Origin: Patescibacteria group bacterium
GTDB lineage: Bacteria; Patescibacteriota; Patescibacteriia; Magasanikbacterales; GWA2-37-8
NCBI GenBank assembly: GCA_004321885.1
Contig: SCQK01000007.1
Location: 32,001-96,000 of the forward strand
Length of the DNA stretch: 64,000 bases
Direction: 5' to 3'
The first letter of the stretch is position 1, and each line of letters opens with the position of its first letter. The notes beneath the pieces were generated by a model, which searched no databases, was not told the DNA's origin, and worked only from the letters and a program-made list of their open reading frames with translations. Positions 35,755 through 55,415 of this stretch are shown here, in pieces. A program made the position numbers and the translations under genes.

Positions 35755-36231
35755 ATGACATTTCGTCGTCGCATCGGTATCGTCTTCGTCTGCATCCTGC
35801 TCGGGTTCGTTGTTCTGTTCGTGGCAGGACCCGGTTTCATGGTGGTCGACAACAGGGACATCCGAGCCGCCGATGATGTCTCAGCGGAGGACATGGCCGC
35901 TTGGCTGGGAGATGCTGGCTGGCAGGCGGATGCTACAAAACATTACTATCTCATCAACGTATCGGGAGTTGTGCATTCTCTCTCGCCGCGATCGCTCAAA
36001 TACCTCGAGGCGCGCATCACAAATACCAAGGCGAATCTGCGCGTGTACGCCGTCACACCGTTATTGGGTTTTGTCGTTGAACCGTTTCGACTCGGAACGG
36101 TGAGCCTCCTGTTTCTGATAGAGACACCGGAAGAGCGAGACCTAGCGGACATCATGCGGCAGTTCAGCTTCTGTGTACGTCAAAGTGATCAGAGCGGGCT
36201 ATGTATGCCCGTGTTGTCGGGGACACGTTGA
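35755..36231 (+). CDS. Membrane hypothetical protein within the island.
   Basis: N-terminal TM IGIVFVCILLGFVVLFVAG. Confidence 0.35.
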   Translation: MTFRRRIGIVFVCILLGFVVLFVAGPGFMVVDNRDIRAADDVSAEDMAAWLGDAGWQADATKHYYLINVSGVVHSLSPRSLKYLEARITNTKANLRVYAVTPLLGFVVEPFRLGTVSLLFLIETPEERDLADIMRQFSFCVRQSDQSGLCMPVLSGTR

Positions 36232-37672
36232 ACTGGCCGGCTTCGGAGCGGAGCGACTGATCATACCCCGGCGCCAACGTGATCTGCGGCGATCCGGTGC
36301 TGAGCTCCACCTTGGCGACCACCGCCTCGATCACTGAGCGCCGTGTCACCGGGTCGTCGCTGGCCAGCTTGGCGTTCATGGATTCCACCACCTCAAGCAT
36401 GGTGGCTCCTCGCTCGTCATCCAACAGGTTCTCCGGTCTGTTCACCAAGAACCACTCGGTTGCCCGGATCTGCTGGAGGACTGCGCCGCGCTCCTGATCG
36501 TACTGGCTGTCGTCGACCAGGCCCCTGGCGTACTGACGAGCCAGATCCTTCAGCTTCTCGTCGAGCTCGCGCCGTTGCTGCCTGAGCAGGCGAATCCGCT
36601 CGCCCTGCTCCTTGCTTCTGGTCCGGCGTGCCTGGCGCTCCGCCCGGCGCAGGACAGGGACCATGGTGGCAGGCAAGTCCATTGCCAGCAGGTTGGCGCA
36701 GATCTCATTGTCAAGGTCGGCCGCTCGGGTGCAGAAGCTACAACCCTGCTGGTGGCAACGGTAGTAGTCGTGGATTCTGCCAGACTTCTTGATGTGTCGC
36801 TCGCCGGTCAGCGTCGCGGCGCACCTCGGGCATCTGACCTTGCCGGCCAGGACGAAGACCAGATGCTTCCGGCCGCCTCGCACACTGCCTCCGGCTTTTT
36901 GCCGAAAGACCTCCTGGCACCGGTCGAAGAGCTCTTTGGAAACCAAAGGTGGATGACTGCCCGGGTAGCTCCTGCCCCTGCTCATCATCACGCCGATGTA
37001 GAACGGATTCTTGAGCAGCCGGCACCATTGGTTAACCGGTACTTTCTTGCCGTGGACACCCACCAGGCCGCTGCTGTAGATCGTGTCCGCCAGCTGGCTG
37101 GCTGTCAGCTTTCCCGTAGCCCACAGTTCAAACGCTTCTCTCACCCTCGTTGCCCTCGCCGGATCCAGCACCACACGATCATTTTGCATCAAATAGCCCA
37201 GACAAGGGCGGCCGAACCATTTGCCCCGAAGAAGGCGCTCTTCGAGGCCCTTGCGAACCTCGGCCGAGAGGTTCGCGCTGTAGAACTCTGCTTGTGCTGC
37301 CATAATGTTTTCCAGAAACTCACCCATAGGGGTCGCTTCAAAGGATTCCACCACCGAAAACAGCTTTACTCCATATTCCTTGAGCTGGCCCTTCAAGATG
37401 AGATGATTAAAGACGTTGCGGGACAGCCGGTCGATCTTGTGGACGACGAGGCCACTGATGGACTTGTCCCGTTTGACGTGGCCGATGGCGGCCATGAGCC
37501 CCGGACGCCCGCGCAACTGCCTGCCCGAGCTGACGTCCTGGTACCTGGCGGCCACGATCAAACCACGTTCCTCGGCGTATCGCTGCATCAGCCGAAACTG
37601 AGCCGCGATGGAAAGCTCGCGTTCCGCCTGCCGAGTGGTGGAGACGCGAGCGTACAAAATGACTGCTGACAT
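36164..37672 (-). CDS. Large serine recombinase (resolvase catalytic domain, then a recombinase domain, a zinc ribbon and a coiled coil).
   Basis: N-terminal ILYARVSTTRQ catalytic-serine motif, DRLSRN, and a Cys cluster CPRC..C..C. It is 502 aa. Confidence 0.85.
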   Translation of the reverse strand: MSAVILYARVSTTRQAERELSIAAQFRLMQRYAEERGLIVAARYQDVSSGRQLRGRPGLMAAIGHVKRDKSISGLVVHKIDRLSRNVFNHLILKGQLKEYGVKLFSVVESFEATPMGEFLENIMAAQAEFYSANLSAEVRKGLEERLLRGKWFGRPCLGYLMQNDRVVLDPARATRVREAFELWATGKLTASQLADTIYSSGLVGVHGKKVPVNQWCRLLKNPFYIGVMMSRGRSYPGSHPPLVSKELFDRCQEVFRQKAGGSVRGGRKHLVFVLAGKVRCPRCAATLTGERHIKKSGRIHDYYRCHQQGCSFCTRAADLDNEICANLLAMDLPATMVPVLRRAERQARRTRSKEQGERIRLLRQQRRELDEKLKDLARQYARGLVDDSQYDQERGAVLQQIRATEWFLVNRPENLLDDERGATMLEVVESMNAKLASDDPVTRRSVIEAVVAKVELSTGSPQITLAPGYDQSLRSEAGQFNVSPTTRAYIARSDHFDVHRS

Positions 37673-37847
37673 AGGAGAGGGGTTAAGAGTAACTCCACCT
37701 ATGGTCGCAGCGCCCGAGCTGCTTTACAACCAAAAGAGAAACCACTATAATTGAAGTGTTTTTATGTTACTACATGCGGATAACACGCTGGGAGTCGGAC
37801 AACCGGAAGGAAACAACCGGGTACGAAGGACGTCCCAGAATCCCCGC

Positions 37848-39455
37848 ATGCGCGCAGTTGCAAAAATTTTTCTTCTTCTGGCCGGCTGGCTTATCGTCGT
37901 TTCCATTGTTTCCAATTCGTTTGACAACGACCTGGGCTGGCATTTGCGCTTTGGCCAAGACGCCCTAAGCGGCGATTTTCAGTACACCGACAGTTATACC
38001 TGGGGCTTTGCCGGGCGCGAGTGGGTAAACCACGAATGGGGGGCCGATATTTTATTTTGGATTATTTACAGCCGCGTCGGCTACTTCGCCCTGGCGCTTC
38101 TCATCGGCACGGTAATCTGGGCGGCATTTGTGCTGGCGCCTCTTATTTTTGCGCGTTTCAGTTTAGGCGCTCTCGCGATTTCGCTGCTCATGGCCCTGGC
38201 CGCGGGCTTTACTTTTGTCACGCGCGTCTCCATGGCGGCGCCGCTGTTTTTTGTTTTGCTCTGGTTTTCGCTGGAAAGAAAAAAATATTTTTTCCTGTGG
38301 CCGATTTTATTCTGGGCGTGGTCTTTTCTGCATGGTAGTTGGATACTGGGATTTATTTTAATAAACATTTATTTGGTTGGAGAAATAATTCCCTCCACTA
38401 TTAGAGCCTGCCCTGAACTTGTTTCAGGGGGAGGGACAAAAGGTGGAGTTGGCAAGAAGCTCTGCTGGCAAATCATTTCCGCGGCCGCGATTCTTCTCAA
38501 TCCGTACGGCATAAAACTCTGGCGCGAGGTGCTCTCCTATTTTATATACAGCGACTACAAGCGGCTGATTATTGAATGGCTGCCAAGCTACAGTTACCCC
38601 ATTCGCTGGTGGCCCATAATTATCGCGGGAGCGGCCGGCGTTTTGCTTTACCTGGGGTGGAAAAACAAAAAAGCGTCTTTGACCCACGTATTGTTATTTT
38701 TGGCCATATTTTTAGCCGCCATGCAATACAAGCGCAACAATATTTTGCTGACGCTCGTTTGCGCGCCGATTTTCGCAATAGCTTTGGAAGAAACAAAGAA
38801 GAAACTACTCTCAATTGCCATTCCGAACCCGAAGGGTGAGGAATCCCTTCGCCTTACGAGTAAGTTTAAGGGATTCCTCGCTCCGCTCGGAATGACAACG
38901 GCGATTGTCCTCTTCGCCGTCTCAGCCGTTTATTACCTTCCCCGCCTGCGGGCGCAAAATGACGTCTGGCAGGACAAAAATTTTTTGACCCGGCACGGCT
39001 TTCCGGTCAAAGCCGTTGATTTTGTAAAAAAACTACCGGCCGGAGCGAAAATTTTCAACGAATTCGGCTGGGGCGGTTTTTTTATCTGGCAAACGCCGCA
39101 AGTAAAAATGTATTTTGACGGACGGGGCGCGGCCACCTGGCGCGACGCCAATGGCGAATTCATGCTTAAAAAATATCTGCGCTACCTTGGCGAAAAAAAA
39201 CAGTTGCCCGAATTAAGCAAAACTCCGGCTGAATATATTTTGCTGGAAAAAAACAGGCTGGCCCTGCCGCCGCCCGGCTGGAGCGACAAACTGTTTTTCA
39301 AAAAAGAAAACTTGGCAAAAATAATGGAGCGCAAGCCGCCGTTGCTTGAAACCGACCTGACGAAAAGCAGTGATTGGAAACTGATTTACAGCGACGAGAT
39401 GACGAACATTTGGAAAAGAACCGCGGACATGAATTCCGGCTCAAGCCCGGAATGA
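37848..39455 (+). CDS. Polytopic membrane protein, possibly a GT-C-fold glycosyltransferase. It contains two in-frame palindromic insertions.
   Basis: More than 10 predicted TM segments. The elements at 38395-38445 (..RACPELVSGGGTKGGVG..) and 38866-38905 (..PKGEESLRLTSKFKGF..) are translated in frame. Confidence 0.5.
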   Translation: MRAVAKIFLLLAGWLIVVSIVSNSFDNDLGWHLRFGQDALSGDFQYTDSYTWGFAGREWVNHEWGADILFWIIYSRVGYFALALLIGTVIWAAFVLAPLIFARFSLGALAISLLMALAAGFTFVTRVSMAAPLFFVLLWFSLERKKYFFLWPILFWAWSFLHGSWILGFILINIYLVGEIIPSTIRACPELVSGGGTKGGVGKKLCWQIISAAAILLNPYGIKLWREVLSYFIYSDYKRLIIEWLPSYSYPIRWWPIIIAGAAGVLLYLGWKNKKASLTHVLLFLAIFLAAMQYKRNNILLTLVCAPIFAIALEETKKKLLSIAIPNPKGEESLRLTSKFKGFLAPLGMTTAIVLFAVSAVYYLPRLRAQNDVWQDKNFLTRHGFPVKAVDFVKKLPAGAKIFNEFGWGGFFIWQTPQVKMYFDGRGAATWRDANGEFMLKKYLRYLGEKKQLPELSKTPAEYILLEKNRLALPPPGWSDKLFFKKENLAKIMERKPPLLETDLTKSSDWKLIYSDEMTNIWKRTADMNSGSSPE

Positions 39456-39464
39456 CAATCGCGG

Positions 39465-40262
39465 CTAACCCCTGGCCAAAGTGAGCCAGTAAATTTTTTG
39501 CGCGCCGGCCGCTTTCAGCACGCGCGCGCATTCCTGCATGGTGGCGCCGGTGGTGTAGACATCATCAACCAGCAGAACGTATGCGGGCGCCGGAGCCGGT
39601 CCCTTCCACGCGAACGCGCCGGCCACGTTTTGCGTCCTTTCCTCTTTGCTTAACCTGGCTTGATGAGGAGTGTAGCGGGTGCGAACTAATACCCCCTCCT
39701 CTATCCTCCCCCTAATAGGGGGAGGGTTCTGTGTGAGTCCCTCCCCTTTTAGAGCCTGCCCTGAACTTGTTTCAGGGGGAGGGATACAGGGAGGGGTATT
39801 CAAAGAGTCCAAAAAAATTTTTGCCAACACTTTCGCCTGGTTAAAGCCGCGCTCGCGTTCGCGGCGCGGGTGCAGGGGAACTGGAAGAACTGACCAGCAT
39901 ATTGGCTCCACAGCCCCGACTAAGTCGGGGACTATGGAGCCAGCCACGCTAATTATCGTTCCGACCGAGCAGAGCGAACGGAGGAACCCCTTTTTCTCAC
40001 TTATTATTTTTTCAAAAACATTTTTAATGTCTTTGGCAAAGCCGTATTTGAATTGTTTTATCAGCCTGCCCACGGGCCCGTTTTCTTCATAAACAAAAAA
40101 AGACGCACCTCGGTCCAGGTGCGCGTCCGCGGGCCAAAGCGCGCACTCATTTTGGTGTTTGGCCCGGCAAAGCTTGCACCACCACTCCCCTTCCACGCCG
40201 CAATCCACGCACGAGACCGGGAAAAGAATATCTTTGAACCAGCGCGCGGAGGCGGCCAGCAT
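39465..40262 (-). CDS. comF: ComF-family protein (double zinc ribbon plus phosphoribosyltransferase domain), with two in-frame palindromic-element insertions.
   Basis: N-terminal CVDCG..C..C and C-terminal PRTase motif VLLVDDVYTTGATM. The elements at 39700-39805 and 39904-39944 are translated. Confidence 0.75.
   Translation of the reverse strand: MLAASARWFKDILFPVSCVDCGVEGEWWCKLCRAKHQNECALWPADAHLDRGASFFVYEENGPVGRLIKQFKYGFAKDIKNVFEKIISEKKGFLRSLCSVGTIISVAGSIVPDLVGAVEPICWSVLPVPLHPRRERERGFNQAKVLAKIFLDSLNTPPCIPPPETSSGQALKGEGLTQNPPPIRGRIEEGVLVRTRYTPHQARLSKEERTQNVAGAFAWKGPAPAPAYVLLVDDVYTTGATMQECARVLKAAGAQKIYWLTLARG
39904..39944. repeat. Copy of the 43 bp CCCCGACTAAGTCGGGG element inside comF.
   Basis: Identical to 20823-20864. 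Confidence 0.8.
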
Positions 40263-43907: not shown

Positions 43908-45038
43908 CTATAATTCTTTCTCCATCGCCACTATCGCTTTTATTTCTTCTATCTTTATCCCGCCTTTTTCCGTCGCTGTCTGCGCCAGGGTTTTTCTGTC
44001 GGCCAACGCGCCGCACACCGCGTCCATGTATTCCAAATAAAGAGGGCTCTGTTTCCAGGCGGCCTGCGCGTCCATATATAATAGGTAGGATTCGTCGCGC
44101 AGGTTGATGAATTTTTGTTTCAGGCGCTGGCCCGCCTCGGCGCAGTTTTGCGCCAAACGGCGAAAATCCGTCAGACTAATATATTTTACCTCATCTATGG
44201 GTCCCATTTCAACAGGCGGAGCGGAAATATCCCGCATGCTCTGTTTTACCGGCGCGCTTCCTAACTTGAACGACGAGGATTGTGTAGCCCCCTCCCCTCT
44301 TAGGGAAACCGTCATCTTCCCCTCCCCTTGATAAGGGGAGGGCTCGCCACCACACCAAAATTTTTGGTGTGGTGGCGAGGGAGGGGCAGTCGCAACCGGC
44401 TTCTCTTCAGGCGCCAAAAGCGCGTGCAAAAGCTCGTTGGCTTTTTTCTTGCTCTCGGGCACAGTTGGTCCCCCCCCTCCTTTAGAAGGAGGGGGCAAGG
44501 GGGTGGTCTTGACCTTTTCTGAATGTTCAAACGGGTTAAACGGAGTTGCTGTCGCCGGCAACAATACCTCTTCGCACGCTCCCGCCGCTTTCTCGGCCTG
44601 ATTGGCCGTAAAACCCATGCCACCGTCTTTTATGGAACGCAATAAAATATTTTTCGTTTCTTCGGGCGAGCGCACGTCTTTGAGGCGCAACTGAATAATA
44701 CTGCGCAAGCGATTGATAAAGTTGGGCGGCACTGGAAAATTTATTTTTTTGAGCGCCTGGTCCACCTGGCTTAGGCGCGGCTCGCTCAATTTCGGCGCGT
44801 CGCCCTTGGCCGGCGCCGGCTCTTCCAAAGGCGACCGAAAATCATTATTCGCTTTCTTCGTTCCCATCATCGGCGCCGTGGGATACGGCGGTCGTTTTGG
44901 CGCTACTTTCACTCCCTCCCCTTTTAGGGGAGGGGCAGGGAGTGGGGTATTGTGCGCCGCTTGTCTTACCTGCGACAAAGGCATGCGCACAAAACTGCCG
45001 TCGGCCTTTTTTACCAAAATTGTTGGTTCGTTTGGCAT
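43908..45038 (-). CDS. Proline-rich hypothetical protein carrying at least four in-frame palindromic-element insertions.
   Basis: Translated elements: PLPAPPLKGEGVKV, PLPPPSKGGGGPT and SPPHQKFWCGGEPSPYQGEG. The ORF extends to 45101 through a further element. Confidence 0.45.
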   Translation of the reverse strand: MPNEPTILVKKADGSFVRMPLSQVRQAAHNTPLPAPPLKGEGVKVAPKRPPYPTAPMMGTKKANNDFRSPLEEPAPAKGDAPKLSEPRLSQVDQALKKINFPVPPNFINRLRSIIQLRLKDVRSPEETKNILLRSIKDGGMGFTANQAEKAAGACEEVLLPATATPFNPFEHSEKVKTTPLPPPSKGGGGPTVPESKKKANELLHALLAPEEKPVATAPPSPPHQKFWCGGEPSPYQGEGKMTVSLRGEGATQSSSFKLGSAPVKQSMRDISAPPVEMGPIDEVKYISLTDFRRLAQNCAEAGQRLKQKFINLRDESYLLYMDAQAAWKQSPLYLEYMDAVCGALADRKTLAQTATEKGGIKIEEIKAIVAMEKEL

Positions 45039-45093
45039 ATTATTTACCCCTGCCTCCCTCCCCCTTAAATAAAGGGGGGGACAGGAGGGGGTA

Positions 45094-46425
45094 TTATTCA
45101 CTAACTAATTTTAAGTCTTTCGCCACCTGCGCGGCCAAGGATTCCACGCTGTCAAATTTTTTGGGCAGGCGCAAATAACGTTCGGTGCGCGCTTCTATTT
45201 TTTTTCCATACAAATCGCCCGCAAAATTCAAAACATGAACTTCCAGGCAGTCTTTTTTTGTTAAAGAATTATATCCATAATATAGCAAGCCGGAATACCC
45301 CTTCCCCTGCCCCTCCCCTAAAAGGGGAGGGTGGCTATCGGTGGTTCCTCCCCTTTTTAGGGGGAGGACAAAGGAGGGGGTATTCGCAATGAAAGCGACG
45401 GAGCACGTATACAATCCCCTGGGCAAATTTTTGGCCAGCGCCACGTCCAAGTTGGCCGTGTGAATCCCTACTTTATCCCCTTGTCCATAGCCGGGCAAAA
45501 CCGCGCCGGCCACCACGCGCGAACGGTGTAAAAACACAATTCTGGTTACGGCCGCCGCCAGCGCCGCCGCTCCCAAAATTTGCGTGGCCGATAACGCGTT
45601 GCCATTTAAATAATAATCCAAAATAATGGCGGACACGGGCCAGGACAGCTCGCACAAAGTCGCCACCGAAGCGGTGATTTTTTTCAGGCCGAAATAGTAC
45701 AAAAACATGGCCGCGGCTCCGGATGTAAAAACTATAATGATTAAAGTCGTCCACTGGGCCGCGCCCACCGACGGCAGAGAGGAAAAATAGCGCGCCGCCG
45801 GAATCGCCATAATCAAAACCGTGAGCCCAAAGCGCAAAGCCGCCAGCAGGCCATAGCTGATATTTTTTAGGGAATATTTTCCAAAGGTGGTGGCCGAACC
45901 CCAGGCAAACGCGGCCAGCATGGAAAAACCGGCGGCAATGGGAACAGCCGACATCGCGCTAGAAACCGCGAACGGATTTTTGAAAGTAACAAAATATCCC
46001 GCGACCAGCGCGAGCGGGGCGTAAAAATAAAACGAGCGCGGAAATCGCTCGCGTAAAAATATGGCGGCCAAGATAATCGCGAAAATCGGCTGAAATTTTT
46101 GCAAAAGAATCACTACGGAAATATCTTTGAAGCCCGTGGCAAACAAGGCCTTGGTGATAAAAATCGTGCCCAAAGCCCCGCCAAACAAGGCCACCCAAAA
46201 AATTGCGACCCACTCTTTGCGTTTTATCAGTTTTAACTGGGCGCGGTAAACAACCAAAAACGGCAACAAGGCGACAAAACCGAGCAGGTGCTCCAAAAAC
46301 ACCAGCAAGGCCGGTTGCAAGGAATACAAACGGGGTCGCAAAAAAGTGCCGTCCAAACTCCACAGCAGAGCGGCCAGCGCCACGGCCATTGCCCCGATAA
46401 TCACGCTATTTTTTTTCATAATCAT
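45094..46425 (-). CDS. Putative fusion of an EamA/DMT-family 10-TM transporter with a C-terminal riboflavin kinase domain. The kinase domain carries an in-frame palindromic insertion.
   Basis: About 300 aa of paired EamA-like TM repeats, then GQGDKVGIHTANL...GLYTCSV..EVHVLNFAGDLYGKKIEARTERYLR (RFK motifs). The element at 45298-45385 encodes ..TTDSHPPLLGEGQGKGYSGL... Confidence 0.55.
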   Translation of the reverse strand: MIMKKNSVIIGAMAVALAALLWSLDGTFLRPRLYSLQPALLVFLEHLLGFVALLPFLVVYRAQLKLIKRKEWVAIFWVALFGGALGTIFITKALFATGFKDISVVILLQKFQPIFAIILAAIFLRERFPRSFYFYAPLALVAGYFVTFKNPFAVSSAMSAVPIAAGFSMLAAFAWGSATTFGKYSLKNISYGLLAALRFGLTVLIMAIPAARYFSSLPSVGAAQWTTLIIIVFTSGAAAMFLYYFGLKKITASVATLCELSWPVSAIILDYYLNGNALSATQILGAAALAAAVTRIVFLHRSRVVAGAVLPGYGQGDKVGIHTANLDVALAKNLPRGLYTCSVAFIANTPSFVLPLKRGGTTDSHPPLLGEGQGKGYSGLLYYGYNSLTKKDCLEVHVLNFAGDLYGKKIEARTERYLRLPKKFDSVESLAAQVAKDLKLVSE

Positions 46426-46481
46426 TTGTCATGCTGAACCACCAGCTGGCGGTTGTTTCAGCATCTTCGCTTTCTTCGTCA

Positions 46482-46593
46482 CCCCACTGTCATTCCGAGC
46501 GGAGCGAGGAATCCCTTATACTACGTTAACAGTTTCTATATCCCCCTTCTTCAAATGCAACACAATCGCCAGCGCCTCGCACAGCCACGAGGC
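46482..46593. repeat. 112 bp direct repeat (copy 1). It includes a MITE-like hairpin and a duplicated 3' gene tail.
   Basis: About 90 percent identical to 47237-47348. On the minus strand it encodes ..EALAIVLHLKKGDIETVNVV with a stop, as a remnant. Confidence 0.75.
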
Positions 46594-46723
46594 GCGTTGT
46601 CTCACACATTAATAATGATTGTGAATAAAAACTGTGGACAAAACGCCTTGACAAAAAACTCTTTTCTTGATATATTAGATTCGGATAGTAACGATGAAAA
46701 GACCCTCGTAAGAAGATACGTGC

Positions 46724-47218
46724 TTACGGGGTGCTTTTTTTATACTCAACTTTATTCCTCAAATCACTAACAAAACTAATTTTGCCGCCGGCCACTTTCC
46801 GCAATAAGTACGAGCAACTGGACGGCGCGGGCGCGATCAAGTGGCAAAACTTATTTTGTTTTCGCAAATAGTCAACTAAACAATGAAAATCACCATCGCC
46901 GCTGACAATTACGGCCTGATCATAATTCTGATATTCTATCATCGTGTGTAAAACCAATTCGGCGTCACAATTCCCTTTTACTTCACCGTCTTTCAATATT
47001 AGAGTTGGTTTAAATATCAAAATGTAACCAACCTCCTGAAGAAATTTATACAACTCCTCATTGCCAAATAAAAAACCAATGAACATAAACGCCTTCGCGA
47101 CGCTATATTTGTCTTTCAAATACCTGCGAAAACGAAAATAATCCAGCTTCCAACCAATGCGCTGCATACTGAAATATAGATTCTGACTGTCTATAAACGC
47201 GAAATTGTTTTCTTTCAT
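46724..47218 (-). CDS. NYN-domain (PIN-like, LabA-type) protein.
   Basis: AFIDSQNLY, DAELVLHTM and VIVSGDGDFHCLV motifs. Confidence 0.65.
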   Translation of the reverse strand: MKENNFAFIDSQNLYFSMQRIGWKLDYFRFRRYLKDKYSVAKAFMFIGFLFGNEELYKFLQEVGYILIFKPTLILKDGEVKGNCDAELVLHTMIEYQNYDQAVIVSGDGDFHCLVDYLRKQNKFCHLIAPAPSSCSYLLRKVAGGKISFVSDLRNKVEYKKSTP

Positions 47219-47236
47219 ACTTCGTTTCCCTCCCCG

Positions 47237-47348
47237 CCCCACTGTCATTCTGAGCGGAGCGAGGAATCCCTTACACTACGTTAACAGTTTCTATATCCCC
47301 TTTTTTCAAATGCAACACTATCGCCAGCGCCTCGCGCAGCCAAGAGGC
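47237..47348. repeat. 112 bp direct repeat (copy 2), overlapping the authentic 3' end of the gene 47271-48254.
   Basis: See copy 1. Confidence 0.75.
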
Positions 47349-48254
47349 ATAAGCCTCGCGCTCCTCTTGTCCGCGATAAATATTCTGCAAGAATTTTTCC
47401 GCCTCCAAAATTGCCGTGTCCTGATTGTAGCCACGGCCGGAAAAATCTTTGAGCAAAACCGATAATTTTCTGCTTTCATCTCCGGCATCGCTCGTCGGCA
47501 CGCTCTCGTTGCTTTGCTCCAACGATTGTATGATGTTCCGGCTCATGGCGTCAAAATCCGCGTCGCTCTTGCCGCCCAAAAATTCCCCCAGATAAAATCG
47601 CGCCGGCACGCCGGTCACGATGGCGCTATAAAAATAATTCTGCAATAAAAATTGTCTTTCATTCGCGCCAAACTGGCCAAACATCTTCCACACCGCCTGC
47701 AAGAGCATGGAAAAAATAAAAGCGTCATCCCAAAAATATTGTTTTTTAATATCTTCTGATTTCGAAACAGCGGGTAGTGTGCGCACAAACATTTCGCCGA
47801 TTTCTTTATCCGCGCCATTTCGCAAAAAATCCCCGAGCGTCGCCACAAAAACCAAATCATTATAAAATCCGCCTTCGCCTTTCAAAATAATTTTCAATTC
47901 TTCTTTTTCGTATGGCTTGACGCCAGCGCCCAAACCCAGAGCCGCTGAAATAAACGATAGCTGTAGCGCCAATGCGCCGGCGATTTCGCTATCGTCTGGC
48001 TTATCCATAAATTCGGCGACCAATTCGGAATCCAAAAACAAAATTATTTCTTTTTCAATCACGTCCATTGCTCCGGATAACTCTTCCTTAGTCGCTCGCG
48101 CGCCAATTTGCGAAGCGTAATCAAACATTTTCTCGTTTGCGCCCTTGGCAATCAAATCCGCTTTGGCTTTTTCCAATTCCAAAAACGCCTCGCGAACATC
48201 CTGCCACGAACACCTTCTAAACTCGCATACTTTGCGCCTGCCGAGGGTGAACAT
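47271..48254 (-). CDS. Hypothetical protein.
   Basis: A 327 aa ORF with no recognisable domain. Confidence 0.45.
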   Translation of the reverse strand: MFTLGRRKVCEFRRCSWQDVREAFLELEKAKADLIAKGANEKMFDYASQIGARATKEELSGAMDVIEKEIILFLDSELVAEFMDKPDDSEIAGALALQLSFISAALGLGAGVKPYEKEELKIILKGEGGFYNDLVFVATLGDFLRNGADKEIGEMFVRTLPAVSKSEDIKKQYFWDDAFIFSMLLQAVWKMFGQFGANERQFLLQNYFYSAIVTGVPARFYLGEFLGGKSDADFDAMSRNIIQSLEQSNESVPTSDAGDESRKLSVLLKDFSGRGYNQDTAILEAEKFLQNIYRGQEEREAYASWLREALAIVLHLKKGDIETVNVV

Positions 48255-48263
48255 AAAGCAATT

Positions 48264-48578
48264 TTATTCCTCTCCTTCGTCAGATTTATCAAAAAAATTT
48301 TCAACCAACTCTGACAAATCAAGACGCCTTCTTTCTTCTGCACTCTTTTTATTAAATTCTAAAACAGAATGCAAATCTTGTTGTTGCCTTGATGTCAAAT
48401 TTCGACTCTCCAGTTCTTTAACGACCAGTTCCGTCGGCGCCTTCAAATTATCATATATGTATCTTTCATTACTATTCGGGGCTACACGCGCGCATAACAT
48501 TCTAAAAACATCCTTAGTTGTATTTTTTTTGAGCTCTGATTTAAAATACCCTTCATTTTCTTTTGTATCGATAGTCAT
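48264..48578 (-). CDS. Small acidic hypothetical protein.
   Basis: A 104 aa ORF. Confidence 0.35.
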   Translation of the reverse strand: MTIDTKENEGYFKSELKKNTTKDVFRMLCARVAPNSNERYIYDNLKAPTELVVKELESRNLTSRQQQDLHSVLEFNKKSAEERRRLDLSELVENFFDKSDEGEE

Positions 48579-48600
48579 AATTATTTTTCATCTATAACTT

Positions 48601-49794
48601 TCAAGCAAGTGGTTGCGCGAAATTACTAAAAATAAAATCTTTCTTCTTTTCGTCAAAATATAATAATGGCTCTCCGGATTTATAATAATCCATATAAATA
48701 TCATTCACTTGCAGCAAATTTGAAAATAAAGGTTCGCTGTGGTAATCCGTTCCGTCCAATTTAATAACGGATTTAATGTAGGCCGCCGCCTGTTCGGCTG
48801 ACACCTTCGCGAACCATTTCTTTAAATTCCGCGTGTCTTCATCCGTAAGGGGAACATGCAAAATGGCATACGTTATGTCCGCAGTCAGATTTGATTTTGT
48901 TATATCAATGTTATTTATGTCAATCCCAATAATGCTTCCGTTCATTATATGCAAATATAACTTCAAGATAATTCCGATTATCAGGCCGTCCGCTTCGCTG
49001 GTCAAATTAAAATATTTATCATTACTCAAAAAATCTAAAAGTTGCATTTCGTTCAAATCCGACTGTGCAAAATTAACAAAGATGGTAATCCAAAAATGAA
49101 TCGTATATAAATCCATTTCATTCTGCGGACCGATTATTGTCTGATTGTCCAACAGAAAACCAGCTAATTCCAAACTGCGTTTGGTTCGAACATCAAACAA
49201 ACTGGAGTCGCTCTTAAGCATGTCCGCCAAAATCGCTTCAATATCAAACCCGATTTCAATCGCCAAGACGATCAAACTGCTATGTAAAAAATAATCTTGT
49301 TCCGTAGAATTAAGCCGGCCAAAAAAATAACAGCATAAAACGACATAAATCCGCCGCAAGAACGCGGCCAGTTCCGCATCTATTCCTTCAAAAAATAACC
49401 CGGCTGCGGAATTTTTTGCCAGCTGGCGTAATAAAATCAAAACCTCATTCTGCTTGCCGAAATTTATCGCTACATAAACCGTGCGAATTAATTTATCGCG
49501 CTGAAGCGAATCCTTCGTGTCGGTCGGTTTGAATTTTTTTATTTCTTCCAATGTCAATTCACCGACCGCGGGATTTCGGCCGCGCATTGTTTTTACCAGA
49601 TTTTCACAATCGCCAAAATTTTCCTTTTTCGTCGTGGAGGTCAGCGGATAAAACTGATACGCCAAAGCTTCTTCCCAGGGAAGTAAATCAAAACCTTTGA
49701 TTAGTTGCTCAAATTCGCTCTTGTCTTTCGCTGAAATATTAAGCAAACTAACAAAGGAAGACAGCGTAAAATTTTCTCTGACAATTTTAGCCAT
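48601..49794 (-). CDS. Hypothetical protein.
   Basis: A 397 aa ORF. Confidence 0.45.
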   Translation of the reverse strand: MAKIVRENFTLSSFVSLLNISAKDKSEFEQLIKGFDLLPWEEALAYQFYPLTSTTKKENFGDCENLVKTMRGRNPAVGELTLEEIKKFKPTDTKDSLQRDKLIRTVYVAINFGKQNEVLILLRQLAKNSAAGLFFEGIDAELAAFLRRIYVVLCCYFFGRLNSTEQDYFLHSSLIVLAIEIGFDIEAILADMLKSDSSLFDVRTKRSLELAGFLLDNQTIIGPQNEMDLYTIHFWITIFVNFAQSDLNEMQLLDFLSNDKYFNLTSEADGLIIGIILKLYLHIMNGSIIGIDINNIDITKSNLTADITYAILHVPLTDEDTRNLKKWFAKVSAEQAAAYIKSVIKLDGTDYHSEPLFSNLLQVNDIYMDYYKSGEPLLYFDEKKKDFIFSNFAQPLA

Positions 49795-49801
49795 AAATTA
49801 A

Positions 49802-51649
49802 TTATTTTCTCTTTCGCGATTTCGGCTTTTTAGGAGGCGTTTGAACTTTAATATTATCTAACAATTGCCTCTTGGCTTCCGCGGAAAATAATTTTAACAT
49901 CTTAATAATTGCACCAATGCCCTCCGGCGGGCTCAATTGCGATACGCGCAGTATTAAACTGTCGTCGGCCTTGCCCAATAATTTTTCCAGGTATTCTTCC
50001 AAAACATAACGCTGGTTGTCTATGGTAATTTCCCCGGCCACTCCTTTTTCAAAATAAATCTCGGCCGCTTGCGCCGCATCATCGCCGAATAGCTTATTGA
50101 ATAGCCCGGTAAAATTTGTTAGCAGCTCATGGGATAAACTTTTAATTTCTTCTTCGCCTGCCTGTTCCTCGCCTTCTTCTCCCTCCTCCAACGCCTCTCT
50201 GGCCTGCTCCTCATCAGTGGCGCCCTTATGTTCCACCATGGCCGCCGCGTCCTTAATATCTCCCATTTTTACCCTCGCGTTTAAATAGGCGACGAGCTCT
50301 TTAATGTTATAAAAATATTGTTCTTCCACCGGAAAGCCTTCTCTTTCTTTTTTCAAATTCCTGCATCTTATCTTTAAGCATATTTTTTTATTCCCCCAGT
50401 CAAATCTCTCGTTGATCGCTTCGCCAGCAGTGAAAAAATCAGTGCCAGCGGCCTTGGCCAAGCACATCAGCCAATCGCGCGGATTATTGTATAAAAAAGG
50501 CGCGATAATATCCGTAAATATTTTATCATCGGCTTCATCCTGCTCAAGACCATAGCCCCTTATATCTCTTAAGGCTTCGTCATACGTGCTGTGCAGGCCT
50601 TGATAAATCTGACCGCGACGATTATTTCCAATGTCAATGATACGATAATCTTCTTTCGGGCCGTTTGTCCCGTCTTCCTTCGGCCTTTCCAATTTTTGCG
50701 TATAAACGACAAAATTTTCCTTTGGCCCCAGGGCCACGGCCGCGTTCTGAGTGCGGGCGAGGGTTCTCTCATGCTGTCTTTCGTTGGAAATATTTTTCCT
50801 GTGCATTTGCAATAATGGCAATTCAAATTCCACCGTGGTGCCGGTATATTCGTTAAATTTCCCTATCTCGTGCACGTGGCCTTCGGCCAAAAATGGAATG
50901 CCTTTTTTTCTAAGATCGGTCCGAGCATCATTTTTGGACATGGTCTCGCAAACCGGCAGCCATAAAAATTCAGCCGCTCCGTTCACCTTGGTTTCTCCGC
51001 TGGCAAGAAATAACGTATGCGAAGCATTTTCAATGTGGTGCTTATCCAAAGCGCTATCGCGCAAGCCGCCAATGTACTGAAAGCCAATCTGATTTGCCCT
51101 GATTTTATCCAGATACCCCTGTGTATCAAAATCAACCAAAGTGTCAAGCGGACATTTTTCGCGCAGGTCAATCGGCCCTTTTTTTGATTGCACGACGAGC
51201 TCTTCACCGTTAAAATATTTTTCTATTAGCGTCTGGTCGTTAATCTTGTTCAGTCCAAGCATTCTATTCATTTCTCTTATGCACGCAAGCTGGGCCAATT
51301 GGCGCAGGTCTGCTTTTAGCTTTTTGCCCGCGACCTCAATCTTTACCGTCATTTCAGCTTTGTCGGCAATGCCTTGATATATATCCGCGGGGTTGTAGCC
51401 GCCGCGCCAGATTTCGTTCGCTTCTAAAAAGTCGCGCATGCGATGGTGCTCCACCAAAAAATCCGAATCATAGCCGGTCATTGATAATAATTCAACATCA
51501 GCCACTTTCGCCGTATCCGAGGTGGCGTTTTTCCAGCCTATTTTTTCGCCCAACTTATGATAAATATGGTCCATGATGGAACCGGTTTTCCCTTCCGATG
51601 CCGGGCGCTGTTTTTTTTCAACTTCTGGGTTATGTATTTCGCTAGCCAT
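49802..51649 (-). CDS. Hypothetical protein with an acidic Glu-rich C-terminal segment. A possible metallophosphoesterase-like GHVHE motif is low confidence.
   Basis: A 615 aa ORF, translationally coupled to the VirB6-like gene. Confidence 0.45.
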   Translation of the reverse strand: MASEIHNPEVEKKQRPASEGKTGSIMDHIYHKLGEKIGWKNATSDTAKVADVELLSMTGYDSDFLVEHHRMRDFLEANEIWRGGYNPADIYQGIADKAEMTVKIEVAGKKLKADLRQLAQLACIREMNRMLGLNKINDQTLIEKYFNGEELVVQSKKGPIDLREKCPLDTLVDFDTQGYLDKIRANQIGFQYIGGLRDSALDKHHIENASHTLFLASGETKVNGAAEFLWLPVCETMSKNDARTDLRKKGIPFLAEGHVHEIGKFNEYTGTTVEFELPLLQMHRKNISNERQHERTLARTQNAAVALGPKENFVVYTQKLERPKEDGTNGPKEDYRIIDIGNNRRGQIYQGLHSTYDEALRDIRGYGLEQDEADDKIFTDIIAPFLYNNPRDWLMCLAKAAGTDFFTAGEAINERFDWGNKKICLKIRCRNLKKEREGFPVEEQYFYNIKELVAYLNARVKMGDIKDAAAMVEHKGATDEEQAREALEEGEEGEEQAGEEEIKSLSHELLTNFTGLFNKLFGDDAAQAAEIYFEKGVAGEITIDNQRYVLEEYLEKLLGKADDSLILRVSQLSPPEGIGAIIKMLKLFSAEAKRQLLDNIKVQTPPKKPKSRKRK

Positions 51650-51650
51650 A

Positions 51651-54600
51651 TTATGTTAATTTTTTCAATTGTTCGCTGTCCAATCCTCTAATTAGCTTGA
51701 ATAGCTCCTGAATGTTCTTGATTCCCTGATCCCTTAGCCCCTGATCGTTTTGGGCGTTATTACGGTGCTGAAGTTCAATTTTACTGGACTCCGTCACATT
51801 AAATTCTTTAATATGCCTGACCGCCTCGGCCCCAAGATTATATTTTTGCAAGAAACCTTTAATGGCGGCGGCTTGTTCGTTATTAAGCAACGTAGCGCTG
51901 GCCCGCATTGTTTTGCGCACGCTTTCAATTACTTGTTGCGCTTCTCCACCAAAAGTAGTAGCGACTTCCTGCGCCAGCATATTCATTGTGGCGTCATCAA
52001 TCCAACTTTGTTCAAATAAGCCTTTCAAAATTGTCTGGGCCACCATTTTATCTTCCCAGGTCTGCTTGCCTTTCCCTTTAAGTGTAACATGGTTCATATG
52101 CCCGCGATGCGCCTGGAGCAACTGGTCGTAATTCATGTCCTTGAAATTCTTGAAAAATCCTTCCACCACGGCTTCTTCGGCGGCGGTGTTTGGCACATCA
52201 ATGCCCATATTGCCCCAAATATTCGCTTGCCCGGCCTTAGAAATCATGTCCTGGCGCGTGCCGCGATACAAAGTGTATTGATGATCGCGCAAGGCCAGCT
52301 GATGAGCCGCGTAAAGAGCGGGGTTGGCCGCGCCAGCTTTTCCCCAAACCGCGCTTAATTGTCCGCGCGACTGGGTGAGCGATCCCGACAAAGACTTGCC
52401 GATTTCTTCGACATTAGCCGCCGATCCGGCTTGCCGGAGCTGGCCCAATATTTGCTGTAATACATTGATTTCGGTTTTGGCTAAAAAATTTTCATCCATT
52501 TGCTGTTTGCCAAAAAGGACCTTAAAATTATTTTCAAGAGCGGTACCTTTCGTTGAACTAAGAAATGCTTGCGCGGCTGTTGCGTCAATTTTGCCGCCGA
52601 CTTTAATTTTTTCCATTGCCTTTGTCAGAGTTTCCAAACTCGCGGCCAATTCCTGTATTTTTTGTTGATTGGCGCCGCCGCTAAAAATACCGGCCGCGCT
52701 TTCCATCCCCTTCAATTTATTTTCATCAGCTTCTATTTCAGATTCTAAATTTCCAATCTCGTCAGCCAGCCTAACCCCTCTTTCAGTTTCATCGTCCGTC
52801 GGATTCGCTTTATTATTCAATACACCATACTCTCTTTTCATTTCTTCTAATGCACTCTTTTTAGAATCCAGACCAGTTCTCATTCCTTCAGCTTTTTCCC
52901 CGGCCGCCAACGCGGAAGCCACGCCCTGCAAAGATTGAATTCGCGTTTCGATGGGAGCCGATTCCGCTTCCAGCTTTCCCTTCCCTTTTTCATTTAACGC
53001 GCTTTGCGCGGCCAAAAGATTCTTCTCCTCTTCCGAACTTAATCCTTCTTGTTCAGACTTACTGCGCGCCAAGGCGCTAACATATTGTTCGCCCTGACTG
53101 GTATTTATCAGCCCGCCCCTAACGCTCGCTTCAATAAATTTAATCAGCTCCTCGGCAATTTGCCCGCCCAGTTCGCCCATTTTTTTAGCTTCCACTGTGT
53201 GCCGAAATCTTTGGAAAAACGCCGCCCTATTTCTCTTCGCTCCCATTTCTTCCAACCCGATTTCCGCCTCGGCCCGCGCTTTATGCGCCTGAATTTGTTC
53301 GCTGACTGTTCCCAAACCATATTTGTCTTTTTCACCAATTTGGAATTCGCCGTTCTTAAATCGCGCATTGCCTTTCACCGCGCGGCGGCCGTATGCCTTG
53401 TATTCGGTGGTTTTTTCTTCCGAACGCGCTTGTTCTGCCTCAAGCATGCCCTTTTCTATGCGATCCAACGCGTTAATGGACGGCCCTTCAAAGGCCTGAA
53501 ATAAATATTTTGGATCGGCGCTGATTCTTTTGTCCATCAATTCTTCGCGCACCTTGGCGAACTCCTGCACTCTCTTCAATTGTTTCCGGCTGCGCAAAAG
53601 CTTTTCGTGCCTCCCATGGAAGAAACGCTGAAACGGACCGCGACCCTCGTCAACGACCTGCTCTGTGTACCATTCATCCCCCTCTCGCACAAGCTTCGCG
53701 CCTTTTTTAATATCGGCCGCGGCCGCTTTTTTCGCCTCCTCTTCTGTCGCCACGGCTACTCCGCTTTTGTCGGTAATAAGATTTTTTTTCTTCTTAAAAT
53801 CATACTTCATCTGCGTTATCGCCTTACCATTCTCATCATATAATTTTCCGCTCTCATCGGCTGTTACACGAGCATTTTGTTCATCTTCGGTCAAAGCGTC
53901 TTTAGAATCTACTATTTTATTATTCTCGTCACGCTTAACTTTATGCCATGCTTTGCTTTTTTCGTCATATTCCATCTTATAACCCATCAATTCTTCATTT
54001 CTGGACAACCTGGATTTAATGTTCAATTCTTCCTCCTTCGTTTCCAACCGCGGCCCGCCGGCACGCCAGGCTCGCCAGCCCTCCACAATTGACCTTTGCA
54101 AATCGCCTTTGATTCTTTCAACTCTATTAGCCAATAAACCCTGATACAATCCTTTTCCTGTTAATTTTGCCAAACCAATCCCCGCTTTCTTAGCCCCCTC
54201 AACCCCCTTTTTCGCCGCCCAGCGCGCCGCGGTGTACCCGCTCGCCACCGCCGCCACCTTCTTGCCGAAGTCCGTCACTTTGCCCATCATGGCCCCGCCG
54301 GTTACGCCCAGCGCCTGGGTCACTTTCGCCCCAATCAAAAGCATGCCAATGGCAATGGCGAAGTTGGCCATGGCCGGCCATGTCATTGCCGCCGTAATTC
54401 CGGCGCTCTGGCCGCCAACTTTAATGTTTGACGCGCCCGCTGATTCAATGCCCTCATCGGTAATTTGAACCGGAACCGAATTATTGCTGGGGTCAGCTAT
54501 CTCTTTGCTTACTGTCCCGGACCCCACCACGGCAAAAGACAACCAAAGAAAAAACGCCAAAATCGGCCCGACAATCACGTGATTGCCAAACTCGGTCCAC

Positions 54601-55415
54601 CACTGGCTGGCGTATTTTTGCGTTTGCGGTATGACATTCAAAACAAAAGCCAAAGGGGATAAAATGATAAGCACCCAAAGCACAATCATACGCGCCAAAA
54701 GAATCACCAGATAAACACCCATGGTCACCATAGCCATCCCCGCAAAAGCGACTGCGGCAACCGAAGCCATAAATATGCCGGACATCTTGTAATTCTCCGG
54801 TTGCGTGCCGCCGGCAAATCTTTGTATATCATTAAAATTGAAGGCGTTTATAAGATTGCCGCCGGCCGTGGCCGCCACGCCATTGATAAAAGTTATCATC
54901 ACCACCTGGGCCAGGTCTATAATCAACCCGGCAATGGTGCGGCTGAAATTTACAAGTATCGCGGCAAACAATAATTTCACCAGTAATTTTTTGTATTCAT
55001 ATTGCTCTATGCCCAAAATTGTGCCAAAGGCGATAACGAGCAGGATAATTACAAAAAACATGTTGGTAACATCGCGCACCAACACCCACCCAGTAGTTAC
55101 CGCCGTTGAATCTATAAATCCATTGTATCCCCCAATTTGAATGGTAAAACGCAGAATGAAAATTGTAATCTTCATGAACAACGCCGCCATCCACATGGTA
55201 AAAGTAGTGCCGGCGCTCATTATGGCATCAAAAAATCCATCAGCCTGCGCCACTTCGGCGCCCATCACCCACATCAACAAAACAGTCGTGGCCACCATCA
55301 CAAACGAAACCATGCCCAACTTCCTGCTGGGTTTCAAAAATCGCAAAACAGCGCTCGCGGCCGCGCGCGCTTTTACGCAAACTTTACTCGCCTTTTTCCA
55401 AAGGGAGACAAGCAT
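51651..55415 (-). CDS. Giant VirB6/TrbL-like polytopic membrane protein with a long C-terminal coiled-coil domain (1254 aa).
   Basis: The N-terminal region of about 450 aa has more than 8 TM helices, followed by about 800 aa that are heptad-rich. Confidence 0.55.
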   Translation of the reverse strand: MLVSLWKKASKVCVKARAAASAVLRFLKPSRKLGMVSFVMVATTVLLMWVMGAEVAQADGFFDAIMSAGTTFTMWMAALFMKITIFILRFTIQIGGYNGFIDSTAVTTGWVLVRDVTNMFFVIILLVIAFGTILGIEQYEYKKLLVKLLFAAILVNFSRTIAGLIIDLAQVVMITFINGVAATAGGNLINAFNFNDIQRFAGGTQPENYKMSGIFMASVAAVAFAGMAMVTMGVYLVILLARMIVLWVLIILSPLAFVLNVIPQTQKYASQWWTEFGNHVIVGPILAFFLWLSFAVVGSGTVSKEIADPSNNSVPVQITDEGIESAGASNIKVGGQSAGITAAMTWPAMANFAIAIGMLLIGAKVTQALGVTGGAMMGKVTDFGKKVAAVASGYTAARWAAKKGVEGAKKAGIGLAKLTGKGLYQGLLANRVERIKGDLQRSIVEGWRAWRAGGPRLETKEEELNIKSRLSRNEELMGYKMEYDEKSKAWHKVKRDENNKIVDSKDALTEDEQNARVTADESGKLYDENGKAITQMKYDFKKKKNLITDKSGVAVATEEEAKKAAAADIKKGAKLVREGDEWYTEQVVDEGRGPFQRFFHGRHEKLLRSRKQLKRVQEFAKVREELMDKRISADPKYLFQAFEGPSINALDRIEKGMLEAEQARSEEKTTEYKAYGRRAVKGNARFKNGEFQIGEKDKYGLGTVSEQIQAHKARAEAEIGLEEMGAKRNRAAFFQRFRHTVEAKKMGELGGQIAEELIKFIEASVRGGLINTSQGEQYVSALARSKSEQEGLSSEEEKNLLAAQSALNEKGKGKLEAESAPIETRIQSLQGVASALAAGEKAEGMRTGLDSKKSALEEMKREYGVLNNKANPTDDETERGVRLADEIGNLESEIEADENKLKGMESAAGIFSGGANQQKIQELAASLETLTKAMEKIKVGGKIDATAAQAFLSSTKGTALENNFKVLFGKQQMDENFLAKTEINVLQQILGQLRQAGSAANVEEIGKSLSGSLTQSRGQLSAVWGKAGAANPALYAAHQLALRDHQYTLYRGTRQDMISKAGQANIWGNMGIDVPNTAAEEAVVEGFFKNFKDMNYDQLLQAHRGHMNHVTLKGKGKQTWEDKMVAQTILKGLFEQSWIDDATMNMLAQEVATTFGGEAQQVIESVRKTMRASATLLNNEQAAAIKGFLQKYNLGAEAVRHIKEFNVTESSKIELQHRNNAQNDQGLRDQGIKNIQELFKLIRGLDSEQLKKLT

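Follow-up and report, generated by a model that had tools for sequence, protein, structure and literature searches.

Long direct repeats around a predicted NYN nuclease and hairpin RNA cassette in a Patescibacteria genome as a probable duplicated insertion target

We analyzed a 64,000-nucleotide (nt) stretch of a Patescibacteria group bacterium genome (contig SCQK01000007.1 of assembly GCA_004321885.1, hereafter the window), in which a gene for an NYN-domain protein lies between two 112-bp direct repeats. Comparison of this locus with its relatives in other genomes suggested that the two copies probably represent the duplicated insertion target of a foreign cassette of approximately 640 bp, made or renewed when the cassette integrated between an upstream host gene (termed geneA) and a gene for an EamA transporter. 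The cassette (46594-47236, 643 bp between the repeat copies) consists of two genes, the NYN gene and a convergent gene for a predicted hairpin RNA. The initial annotation correctly placed the NYN gene between the copies but overlooked the small RNA gene. Its suggestion of a cassette insertion is supported by four lines of evidence: the arrangement without a cassette at a related locus, the low GC content of the cassette (38%, compared with 49% for the window, 46.5% for geneA, and 50.7% for the EamA gene), the occurrence of related cassettes in unrelated contexts in many phyla, and the enrichment of flanking repeats around them. The genes surrounding the repeats are all on the minus strand, and the elements of the locus are as follows.

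45094-46425, minus strand: gene for an EamA transporter fused to riboflavin kinase, the downstream host gene (Pfam EamA 1e-27, Flavokinase 2e-19)
46482-46593, minus strand: repeat copy B (T2), composed of a geneA 3'-end remnant (46516-46593, in frame, non-functional), a palindromic half-element (46488-46515), and CCCCAC
46594-46647, no strand assigned: cassette 3' tail, between the -35 box and copy B
46648-46676, plus strand: sigma-70-type promoter, TTGACA-17-TATATT with an extended TG, matching at 11 of 12 positions and reading towards the NYN 3' end
46683-46745, plus strand: predicted small RNA of approximately 60 nt, with a 5' AACGAUGAAAAG motif, a long hairpin, and a U-run
46724-47218, minus strand: NYN-domain (LabA/COG1432-type, PIN-like) nuclease gene, 164 amino acids (aa), predicted from Pfam NYN and 2QIP profile matches
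47219-47236, minus strand: cassette 5' end, 18 nt including a GGAGGG ribosome-binding site
47237-47348, minus strand: repeat copy A (T1), composed of the functional 3' end of geneA (47271-47348), a palindromic half-element (47243-47270), and CCCCAC
47271-48254, minus strand: geneA, the upstream host gene, an open reading frame (ORF) for a 327-aa hypothetical protein (NCBI EPN28_01860, Patescibacteria group bacterium) with no Pfam match

A repeat search of the window detected the direct repeat as a pair with two copies only (46465-46593 and 47220-47348; 129 nt, 90% identity), with a core of 112 nt (46482-46593 and 47237-47348) that is 93.75% identical, with mismatches at 7 of 112 positions. The repeat score is far above that of shuffled flanks (z = 94), and the reverse-complement control scored 8 in comparison to 91. 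Weaker similarity extends beyond the core to 47220 in copy A and to 46465 in copy B, forming on the minus strand a degenerate 17-nt tail of purine-rich ribosome-binding-site sequence. The initial annotation described the repeat as the last codons of the neighboring gene followed by a hairpin resembling a miniature inverted-repeat transposable element (MITE), and this composition was recovered in full: read on the minus strand, copy A consists of the last 25 codons and the stop codon of geneA, followed by a 28-nt motif, GGGATTCCTCGCTCCGCTCAGAATGACA, and by GTGGGG. The motif that follows the geneA coding part at 47243-47270 is TGTCATTCTGAGCGGAGCGAGGAATCCC. In copy B, which had been described as an in-frame remnant with a stop, both the frame and the stop are indeed intact; the translations of the two copies compare as ASWLCEALAIVLHLKKGDIETVNVV and ASWLREALAIVLHLKKGDIETVNVV, each ended by a stop. 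The coding parts differ by six substitutions, five of which are synonymous changes at third codon positions. The two boundaries of the cassette read GTGGGG/CGGGGAGG and CAACGC/GCCTCG (the slash marks the junction).

The sequence comes from a metagenome-assembled genome, in which a graph loop or a strain chimera could produce an artificial duplication. Over 46489-50326, the window matches an independent Logan assembly of run SRR8426592 at 100% identity; this span covers copy A, the NYN gene, and 105 nt of copy B. The end of the Logan contig falls inside a 31-nt exact stretch that is common to copy B and 38867-38897, and this break is the kind of feature on which an artefact could be argued. However, the seven mismatches between the copies create distinct paths in any assembly graph and thereby rule out a repeat-collapse or loop artefact, and a different assembler arrived at the same sequence. 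We therefore regard the repeats as real, and the duplication is almost certainly not a product of assembly.

The hairpin motif (28-31 nt) has a third occurrence in the window at 38867-38897 and is thus a dispersed element, while the remaining approximately 80 nt of the repeat are unique within the window. The initial annotation had considered recombination mediated by this repeat element, and a duplication generated by recombination between dispersed MITE-like palindromes would agree with the three occurrences of the motif, one of them within a full palindrome of approximately 86 nt (38812-38897). Of the 112 nt, however, the motif covers just 28-31, roughly a quarter, and what remains is unique coding sequence; an exchange between two elements would leave the sequence upstream of them unduplicated. 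In addition, the 28-nt motif was found in none of the other loci retrieved, the 19 further NYN loci with flanking repeats included. This origin of the duplication is thus very hard to credit, and the sequence comparison indicates that the MITE-like hairpin is probably part of the duplicated target and not its cause. The full palindrome at 38812-38897 consists of two inverted arms with a 22-nt spacer (DNA fold of -24.6 kcal/mol, z = -4.6) and sits in frame in a 563-aa membrane protein ORF (37764-39455, plus strand). The last codons of geneA (ETVNVV and the stop) resemble the spacer of this element, and the C-terminus of geneA may for this reason be partly element-derived.

The assignment of the NYN domain in the initial annotation was confirmed by a match to Pfam PF01936 (54.1 bits, cut-off 24.2, E = 3e-14) over residues 18-152 of a 174-aa reading. 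The likely start codon lies at 47218, giving a 164-aa protein in agreement with the Logan gene call, rather than at 47248. A profile of the NYN family matched the solved NYN structure PDB 2QIP with E = 4e-16, and in an alignment of 36 sequences the acidic residues D10, D85, E87, D108, and D110 are invariant. The domain and these residues, which correspond to the acidic active site of the PIN-like fold, mark the protein as a predicted nuclease. PADLOC gave a weak NYN match (E = 6e-7) and a weak HEC-09 match, and no match to the NYN protein was found in NCBIfam or PHROGs. The NYN gene is the sole ORF of the cassette, in which no transposase or other Pfam, NCBIfam, or PHROG domain was detected. 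Because just 18 nt separate the NYN gene from copy A, which is too short for a promoter, the gene is considered promoterless.

Analysis of the opposite strand revealed the second gene of the cassette. The 3' arm of the predicted RNA hairpin overlaps the NYN stop codon (46724-46726), and the RNA folds with -17.1 kcal/mol (z = -2.9). Across the family, approximately 140 of 150 loci carry the same arrangement opposite NYN: a -35/-10 promoter, a gap of about 8 nt, AAUCACGAUG, a long hairpin with a UUYYGU loop that abuts or overlaps the NYN stop codon, and a U-run. A promoter matching at no fewer than 10 of 12 positions is present on the RNA strand in 111 of 146 loci and on the NYN sense strand in 11 of 146. 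The 146 unique RNAs have a mean fold z of -4.0, with the UUYYGU loop in approximately 100 of them. A covariance model built on one RNA subtype gave 73 matches in 728 kb, all of them antisense and directly after NYN, and none elsewhere. In the covariance-model alignment, 95.6% of the cells are paired and 11 of 11 base pairs show compensatory double changes; none of 500 shuffles reached the observed values, and slid controls gave far lower ones. This alignment was used because RNAalifold on a plain MAFFT alignment gave no structure, the two RNA subtypes being misaligned. The promoter, terminator, stop-codon overlap, conservation, and covariation together support, in silico, a cis-encoded antisense RNA overlapping the NYN mRNA.

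The RNA in the window scores just 8.4 bits with the one-subtype model, yet it is the top match and lies at the expected place. It is a loop variant, and the locus with the closest NYN relative (L166, 72% identity; related loci are labeled by L and a number) has the same variant loop with compensatory changes in the stem, which identifies the window RNA as a conserved subtype rather than a decaying copy. In the 36-sequence alignment, the variable C-terminal residues of the NYN protein (KKxTP, PHKDGT) are the translated hairpin. Searches of Rfam returned no match for the window locus (E up to 1) or for the RNA region of L016 (E up to 5), and only transfer-messenger RNA (tmRNA) and tRNA for 15 related loci at gathering thresholds; the small RNA thus appears to belong to no described Rfam family. 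The conserved loop and internal-loop nucleotides hint at recognition by a protein over simple antisense pairing.

The NYN protein has more than 7600 homologues, among which it belongs to a tight clade (55-72% identity) in uncultivated lineages. The cassette is found in more than 10 phyla, with copies of 55-65% identity in Patescibacteria, Omnitrophota, Elusimicrobia, Planctomycetes, Chloroflexota, Nitrospirae, Gamma- and Deltaproteobacteria, Bacteroidetes, Actinomycetota, and others. At the nucleotide level, seven cassette pairs match at 86-96% identity over a block of 580-720 bp, whose flanks are unrelated within each pair. The homology starts between -80 and +2 relative to the ATG and ends +72 to +149 after the stop codon, so that the RNA gene and its promoter are always included. 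The left end of the cassette lies 1-124 nt upstream of the ATG and the right end 12-55 nt beyond the -35 box; the 3' tail, likewise 12-55 nt elsewhere, is not conserved. Neither conserved ends nor terminal inverted repeats were found in the nine loci with repeat-defined ends or at the homology boundaries of the seven pairs. NYN is mostly co-directional with its neighbors (62:13 upstream, 61:15 downstream) and often lies a few tens of nt from the upstream stop codon. The window holds a single cassette, and several identical copies within one genome were not seen. Plasmid records contain only NYN genes of approximately 30% identity, phage records contain none, and IMG/VR gave 2 matches in 2.9 million contigs; the cassette is thus essentially absent from sequenced plasmids and phages.

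Several loci show particular relations to adjacent genes. In L128/L149 and L107/L117, the homology between near-identical cassettes stops exactly at an ATG/ATGA resembling the start codon of the unrelated downstream gene, and the signal that couples translation to the next gene may be provided or kept intact by the cassette. The cassette lies beside a tmRNA gene in L024 (4614-4959) and beside a tRNA gene in L038 (4666-4736). In L039, a 42-nt repeat (420-461 and 2316-2357) that looks, by eye, like a portion of a tRNA gene brackets a larger 1.9-kb unit containing NYN, which may ride there on a tRNA-targeting integrative element.

Flanking repeats were then compared across the family. A scan of the 300 nt upstream of NYN against the region 40-450 nt downstream, with a score of at least 20, detected direct repeats at 12 of 77 genome loci and 8 of 72 metagenome loci (20 of 149). 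The repeats are 23-119 bp long (median 50) and 90-100% identical, and the reverse-complement control never scored above 16. Of 156 control ORFs from these loci that are comparable in size, 2 had such repeats, one of the two being another NYN gene, which corresponds to an approximately tenfold enrichment around NYN (Fisher p from 3e-5 to 4e-6). The repeat sequences are unrelated from locus to locus, and 13 of the 20 occur exactly twice in their own locus. At 6 of the 20 loci, the stop codon of the upstream gene lies in the upstream repeat copy or no more than 9 nt from it. Extra full or partial copies occur in L108, L083, L055, L056, and L057, and the repeat of L097 is dispersed in three copies and thus no clean target duplication; these six loci were treated as unclean cases. 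The repeats show no preference for hairpins (DNA fold z < -2 in 3 of 20 repeats, compared with 2 of 18 control windows), and microhomology beyond their edges is at background (28-32% matches).

Three loci are distinctive in their own right. L056 (3889-5544) contains two different NYN cassettes with three copies of one repeat (58-78 nt) between them, and L041 (2400-8100) contains four NYN genes with copies of a 146-nt repeat between them, together with genes for a PemK toxin and a SocA/Panacea antitoxin. These arrays appear to have an integron-like or toxin-antitoxin-island organization. In L083 (4001-4504), where the 37-bp repeats are 100% identical, a premature stop (CAA to TAA) interrupts NYN in its invariant IDSQN motif. 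This insertion looks recent with its nuclease already inactivated, and the stop would fit counter-selection of an active nuclease without proving it.

Comparison with related loci provided evidence for the arrangement before insertion. Among 5.8 billion proteins, only two homologues of geneA were detected (36% and 35% identity), and both keep the C-terminal motif LHLKKGDI that lies within the repeat; its conservation shows that the coding part of the repeat is genuine host sequence, single in the relatives. L002 has a syntenic cluster (1182, 631, 392, and 336 aa), in which the EamA/flavokinase gene, 57% identical to the one in the window, begins 8 nt past the geneA homologue. L003 carries a homologue of the window gene 43908-45101 that starts 4 nt beyond its own geneA homologue. 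No NYN match was found in L002 or L003. The empty site that was expected in relatives is thus represented by two loci that lack NYN and carry the coding motif of the repeat once, but at 36-57% protein identity only. A second case is L025, in which NYN lies between the genes for dCMP deaminase and nrdR; in five related Omnitrophota loci (from the series L168-L173), these genes overlap by 4 nt or are 3 nt apart. The 14 nt before nrdR in L025 still resemble the end of the deaminase gene of the relatives.

These comparisons bear on the possibility that NYN is native to the operon and the repeat a coincidental local duplication with no link to mobility. Most homologues have no repeats and the closest ones lie in similar gene clusters, as this explanation would have it, whereas the empty arrangement of L002 and L003, the 11-point GC deficit of the cassette, the sharp boundaries in unrelated contexts, and the tenfold repeat enrichment all speak against it, and we consider it highly improbable. 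The initial annotation had proposed that NYN homologues without the duplication and with other flanks would point to coincidence. Most homologues are of this kind, yet we judged the test invalid, because the duplications recur about ten times as often as around control genes.

The repeats could also be the attL and attR sites of a small integrative element that brings along a copy of the gene end it targets and whose recombinase acts in trans, for example the large serine recombinase encoded 9 kb away. A restored 3' end of the target gene and flanking direct repeats are typical outcomes of the insertion of integrative elements. Nevertheless, no recombinase gene is present in or beside the cassette, either in the window or in the loci for which neighboring genes were listed; serine integrases use short, defined cores, and the flanking repeats show no sequence relationship to one another, with lengths in closely related cassettes that range from 23 to 119 bp. 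This explanation is accordingly given very little credence. The recombinase itself (36164-37672, minus strand; 502 aa, with Resolvase, Recombinase, and zinc-ribbon domains) falls within the part of the window where GC content peaks (58.6% over 36-38 kb) and may mark an integrated element beside the membrane gene with the palindromic insert.

Several observations weigh against a simple target duplication at the arrival of the cassette. Approximately 87% of the cassette copies have no detectable flanking repeat, and several cassettes of 86-96% identity lack even a short target duplication at their homology boundaries. Duplication is thus not obligatory on insertion, since most copies, including recently diverged ones, are without a repeat. 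The loci L058 and L065 are syntenic (78-80% nucleotide identity) and have the cassette and its left junction in common; the repeats of L058 differ at 1 of 44 positions, and L065 carries a gene for a 249-aa methyltransferase where the second copy would be. On this comparison, the L058 repeats are at least tenfold younger than the cassette. The empty site of the window is known at 36-57% protein identity only, the databases being without a close relative of this genome, and the 58-nt repeat of L025 was not found in the empty sites of its relatives. In addition, the closest relatives of the window NYN also occupy clusters resembling type IV secretion systems (T4SS): in L166, NYN lies immediately upstream of a homologue of the window gene 43908-45101, with a TraC-like neighbor of 80% identity, and in L167 it lies between T4SS pilin genes. 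Since these relatives are found in T4SS-like clusters too, NYN in this cluster may predate the repeats. An exact look-up of the EamA protein with either start codon, for an empty allele in the same sample, gave no match.

A different order of events would account for part of these observations. The cassette may already have stood after geneA, as in L166, and the EamA gene together with the last 112 bp of a donor geneA region may have arrived later in DNA taken up from a closely related strain with the gene order of L002 (geneA-EamA). This would have occurred by homology-facilitated illegitimate recombination, with a homologous crossover downstream and an illegitimate joint at the 3' end of the cassette. 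The five third-position changes among six coding differences and the intact frame and stop of copy B are as expected of a functional allele, and the differences between repeat copies pooled over six loci fall at the three codon positions as 2, 3, and 9 (p = 0.017). The NYN gene of L166, with 72% identity and the same RNA variant, immediately precedes, within the homologous cluster, the gene that in the window comes after EamA; L065 has another gene inserted exactly at the cassette 3' end; and the spacing from geneA to the next gene of the cluster varies among relatives. However, this route requires more events than a single insertion, the adjacency of geneA and EamA is old in the clade (L002), and the repeat enrichment at 19 other unrelated loci, sharp at both cassette ends, is left unexplained. 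The codon-position signal is also weak with six substitutions and is partly expected if selection filters changes in the functional copy. Both the late arrival of the EamA side and the recombination route proposed for it are therefore rated as unlikely, though worth keeping in view. Concerning the junction in L065, the DNA beyond the cassette 3' end differs between L065 (4595-5416) and L058 (4600-4702), both from Peribacteria, and the 3' boundary may be a hotspot for further insertions.

Taken together, the repeat-less copies, L058/L065, L025, the relatives in T4SS-like clusters, and the codon-position bias suggest that the repeats are dynamic and that recombination may have created or renewed them once the cassette had first arrived. 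In the target-duplication reading that we prefer, NYN would be transcribed by read-through from the host operon, and the convergent RNA, with its own strong promoter and an intrinsic terminator over the NYN stop codon, would hold NYN in check. The two could act as a selfish or addictive module of a nuclease toxin and an antisense RNA with a type-I-like architecture, which would explain the retention of the cassette. Integration may take place at widely staggered breaks or via two offset illegitimate joints, and only those integrations that duplicate, and do not delete, the ends of tightly packed host genes would survive. The repeats could later support RecA-dependent loop-out and re-entry, which would keep the copies similar and both intermittently under coding selection. 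Candidate routes of renewal are gene conversion, RecA loop-out and re-entry of a circle of cassette plus repeat between strains, and homology-facilitated illegitimate recombination. A selfish, mobile cassette resembling a toxin and antisense RNA pair is the best reading of the available comparisons. It is doubtful, but conceivable, that NYN itself is the mobility enzyme, possibly together with the hairpin RNA, which would define a new class of minimal autonomous elements of approximately 650 bp with no inverted ends, inserting without a promoter at host gene ends and making long, variable target duplications.

Comparison with known systems revealed partial similarities. Insertion sequences of the IS1549/IS1634 type generate long direct repeats on insertion, with variable lengths of 8-514 bp, by a mechanism that is not established (PMC2266710), and they are the only documented precedent that we found for enriched long flanking duplications of variable length. 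The 23-119-bp repeats around the NYN cassette are similarly long and variable. Unlike the IS1634 family, with elements of 1.5-2 kb, a DDE transposase, and terminal inverted repeats, the NYN cassette is only about 0.65 kb long, has neither of these features, and mostly lacks repeats. In comparison to a classical insertion sequence, the cassette does occur at different sites across genomes (the 86-96% identical pairs with unrelated flanks), whereas a target-site duplication (23-119 bp) is present in only 20 of 149 copies and absent in the others, including recently diverged ones.

The arrangement of the two genes is similar to that of type I toxin-antitoxin loci, among which txpA/RatA and bsrG/SR4 also have antisense RNAs that overlap at the 3' end. 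As in yonT/SR6, a protein gene faces a convergent RNA with its own strong promoter and the 3' ends overlap, and each kind of locus forms a compact two-gene module that is horizontally mobile. Apart from the nucleases SymE and RalR, the known type I toxins are small hydrophobic peptides; the NYN protein, in contrast, is soluble and has 164 aa. Integron cassettes are also promoterless single ORFs that are co-oriented with their neighbors, followed by an imperfect palindrome and found in arrays, as in L041 and L056, but the NYN cassette boundaries have no GTTRRRY cores, the flanking repeats are locus-specific and not attC, and the palindrome is, unlike attC, an antisense RNA gene with a promoter on the opposite strand. 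Free-standing homing endonuclease genes likewise consist of a nuclease gene wedged between tightly packed conserved genes, with a patchy distribution and empty sites (as in L002 and L168-L173); NYN is, however, not a known homing-endonuclease fold, and homing proceeds without target duplication. From site-specific integrative elements the cassette differs in having neither an integrase gene nor an att core conserved among related elements.

The NYN protein has the same domain and the same conserved acidic residues as LabA and VPA0982 (PDB 2QIP), of the NYN.COG1432 group in the PIN-like superfamily. In the classification of PIN-like proteins, NYN.COG1432 is listed as "function unknown", with no associated RNA or mobility mentioned (PMC5499597). 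A literature search on NYN with target-site duplication, transposase or transposition, antitoxin RNA, or Patescibacteria found nothing relevant. The cassette, often flanked by long duplications of local sequence, is apparently undescribed and widespread.

The host cluster and a second repeat family deserve description. The region 47271-55415 (minus strand) contains a cluster of five genes (1254, 615, 397, 104, and 327 aa) with no Pfam match, whose order is conserved in L002. This cluster adjoins PrgI and TraC-like genes in the window, L003, and L166, and TraG-like genes in the larger-contig record of L003 only. It looks like an uncharacterized module of a Patescibacteria T4SS-like apparatus, and the three closest NYN copies (window, L166, and L167) are all located in such clusters. 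A family of short G/C-rich palindromes (CCCTCCCCTTTTAGGGGAGGG and variants) is present in at least six copies, in frame in coding regions. The copies lie at 44290-45390 (ORFs 43908-45101 and 45094-46425) and 39465-40262 and are translated as PLLKGEGQG-like stretches, including in the EamA/riboflavin-kinase fusion; the same palindrome is found beside NYN in L166 (2840-3000).

The LabA/COG1432 NYN proteins are among the largest PIN-like groups and have no assigned function, and the locus described here leads to a tight subfamily among them. This subfamily travels with a conserved structured small RNA that is not in Rfam, and the two move horizontally as a unit across distant and mostly uncultivated phyla, such as the candidate phyla radiation (CPR) and Omnitrophota. 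The cassette provides a testable handle on the role of NYN, either as a toxin with an RNA antidote or as a nuclease with an RNA cofactor. It also opens a way to examine the entry of small accessory genes into the tightly packed operons of streamlined genomes, with the ends of the neighboring genes spared. Should the nuclease indeed make the duplications, the cassette would be a mobile element of a new kind and the first such element, transposon-like or homing-like, to be driven by a protein with a PIN-like/NYN fold. If the nuclease does not, the cassettes would serve as natural markers of illegitimate or homology-facilitated integration in lineages that are thought to depend on DNA uptake.

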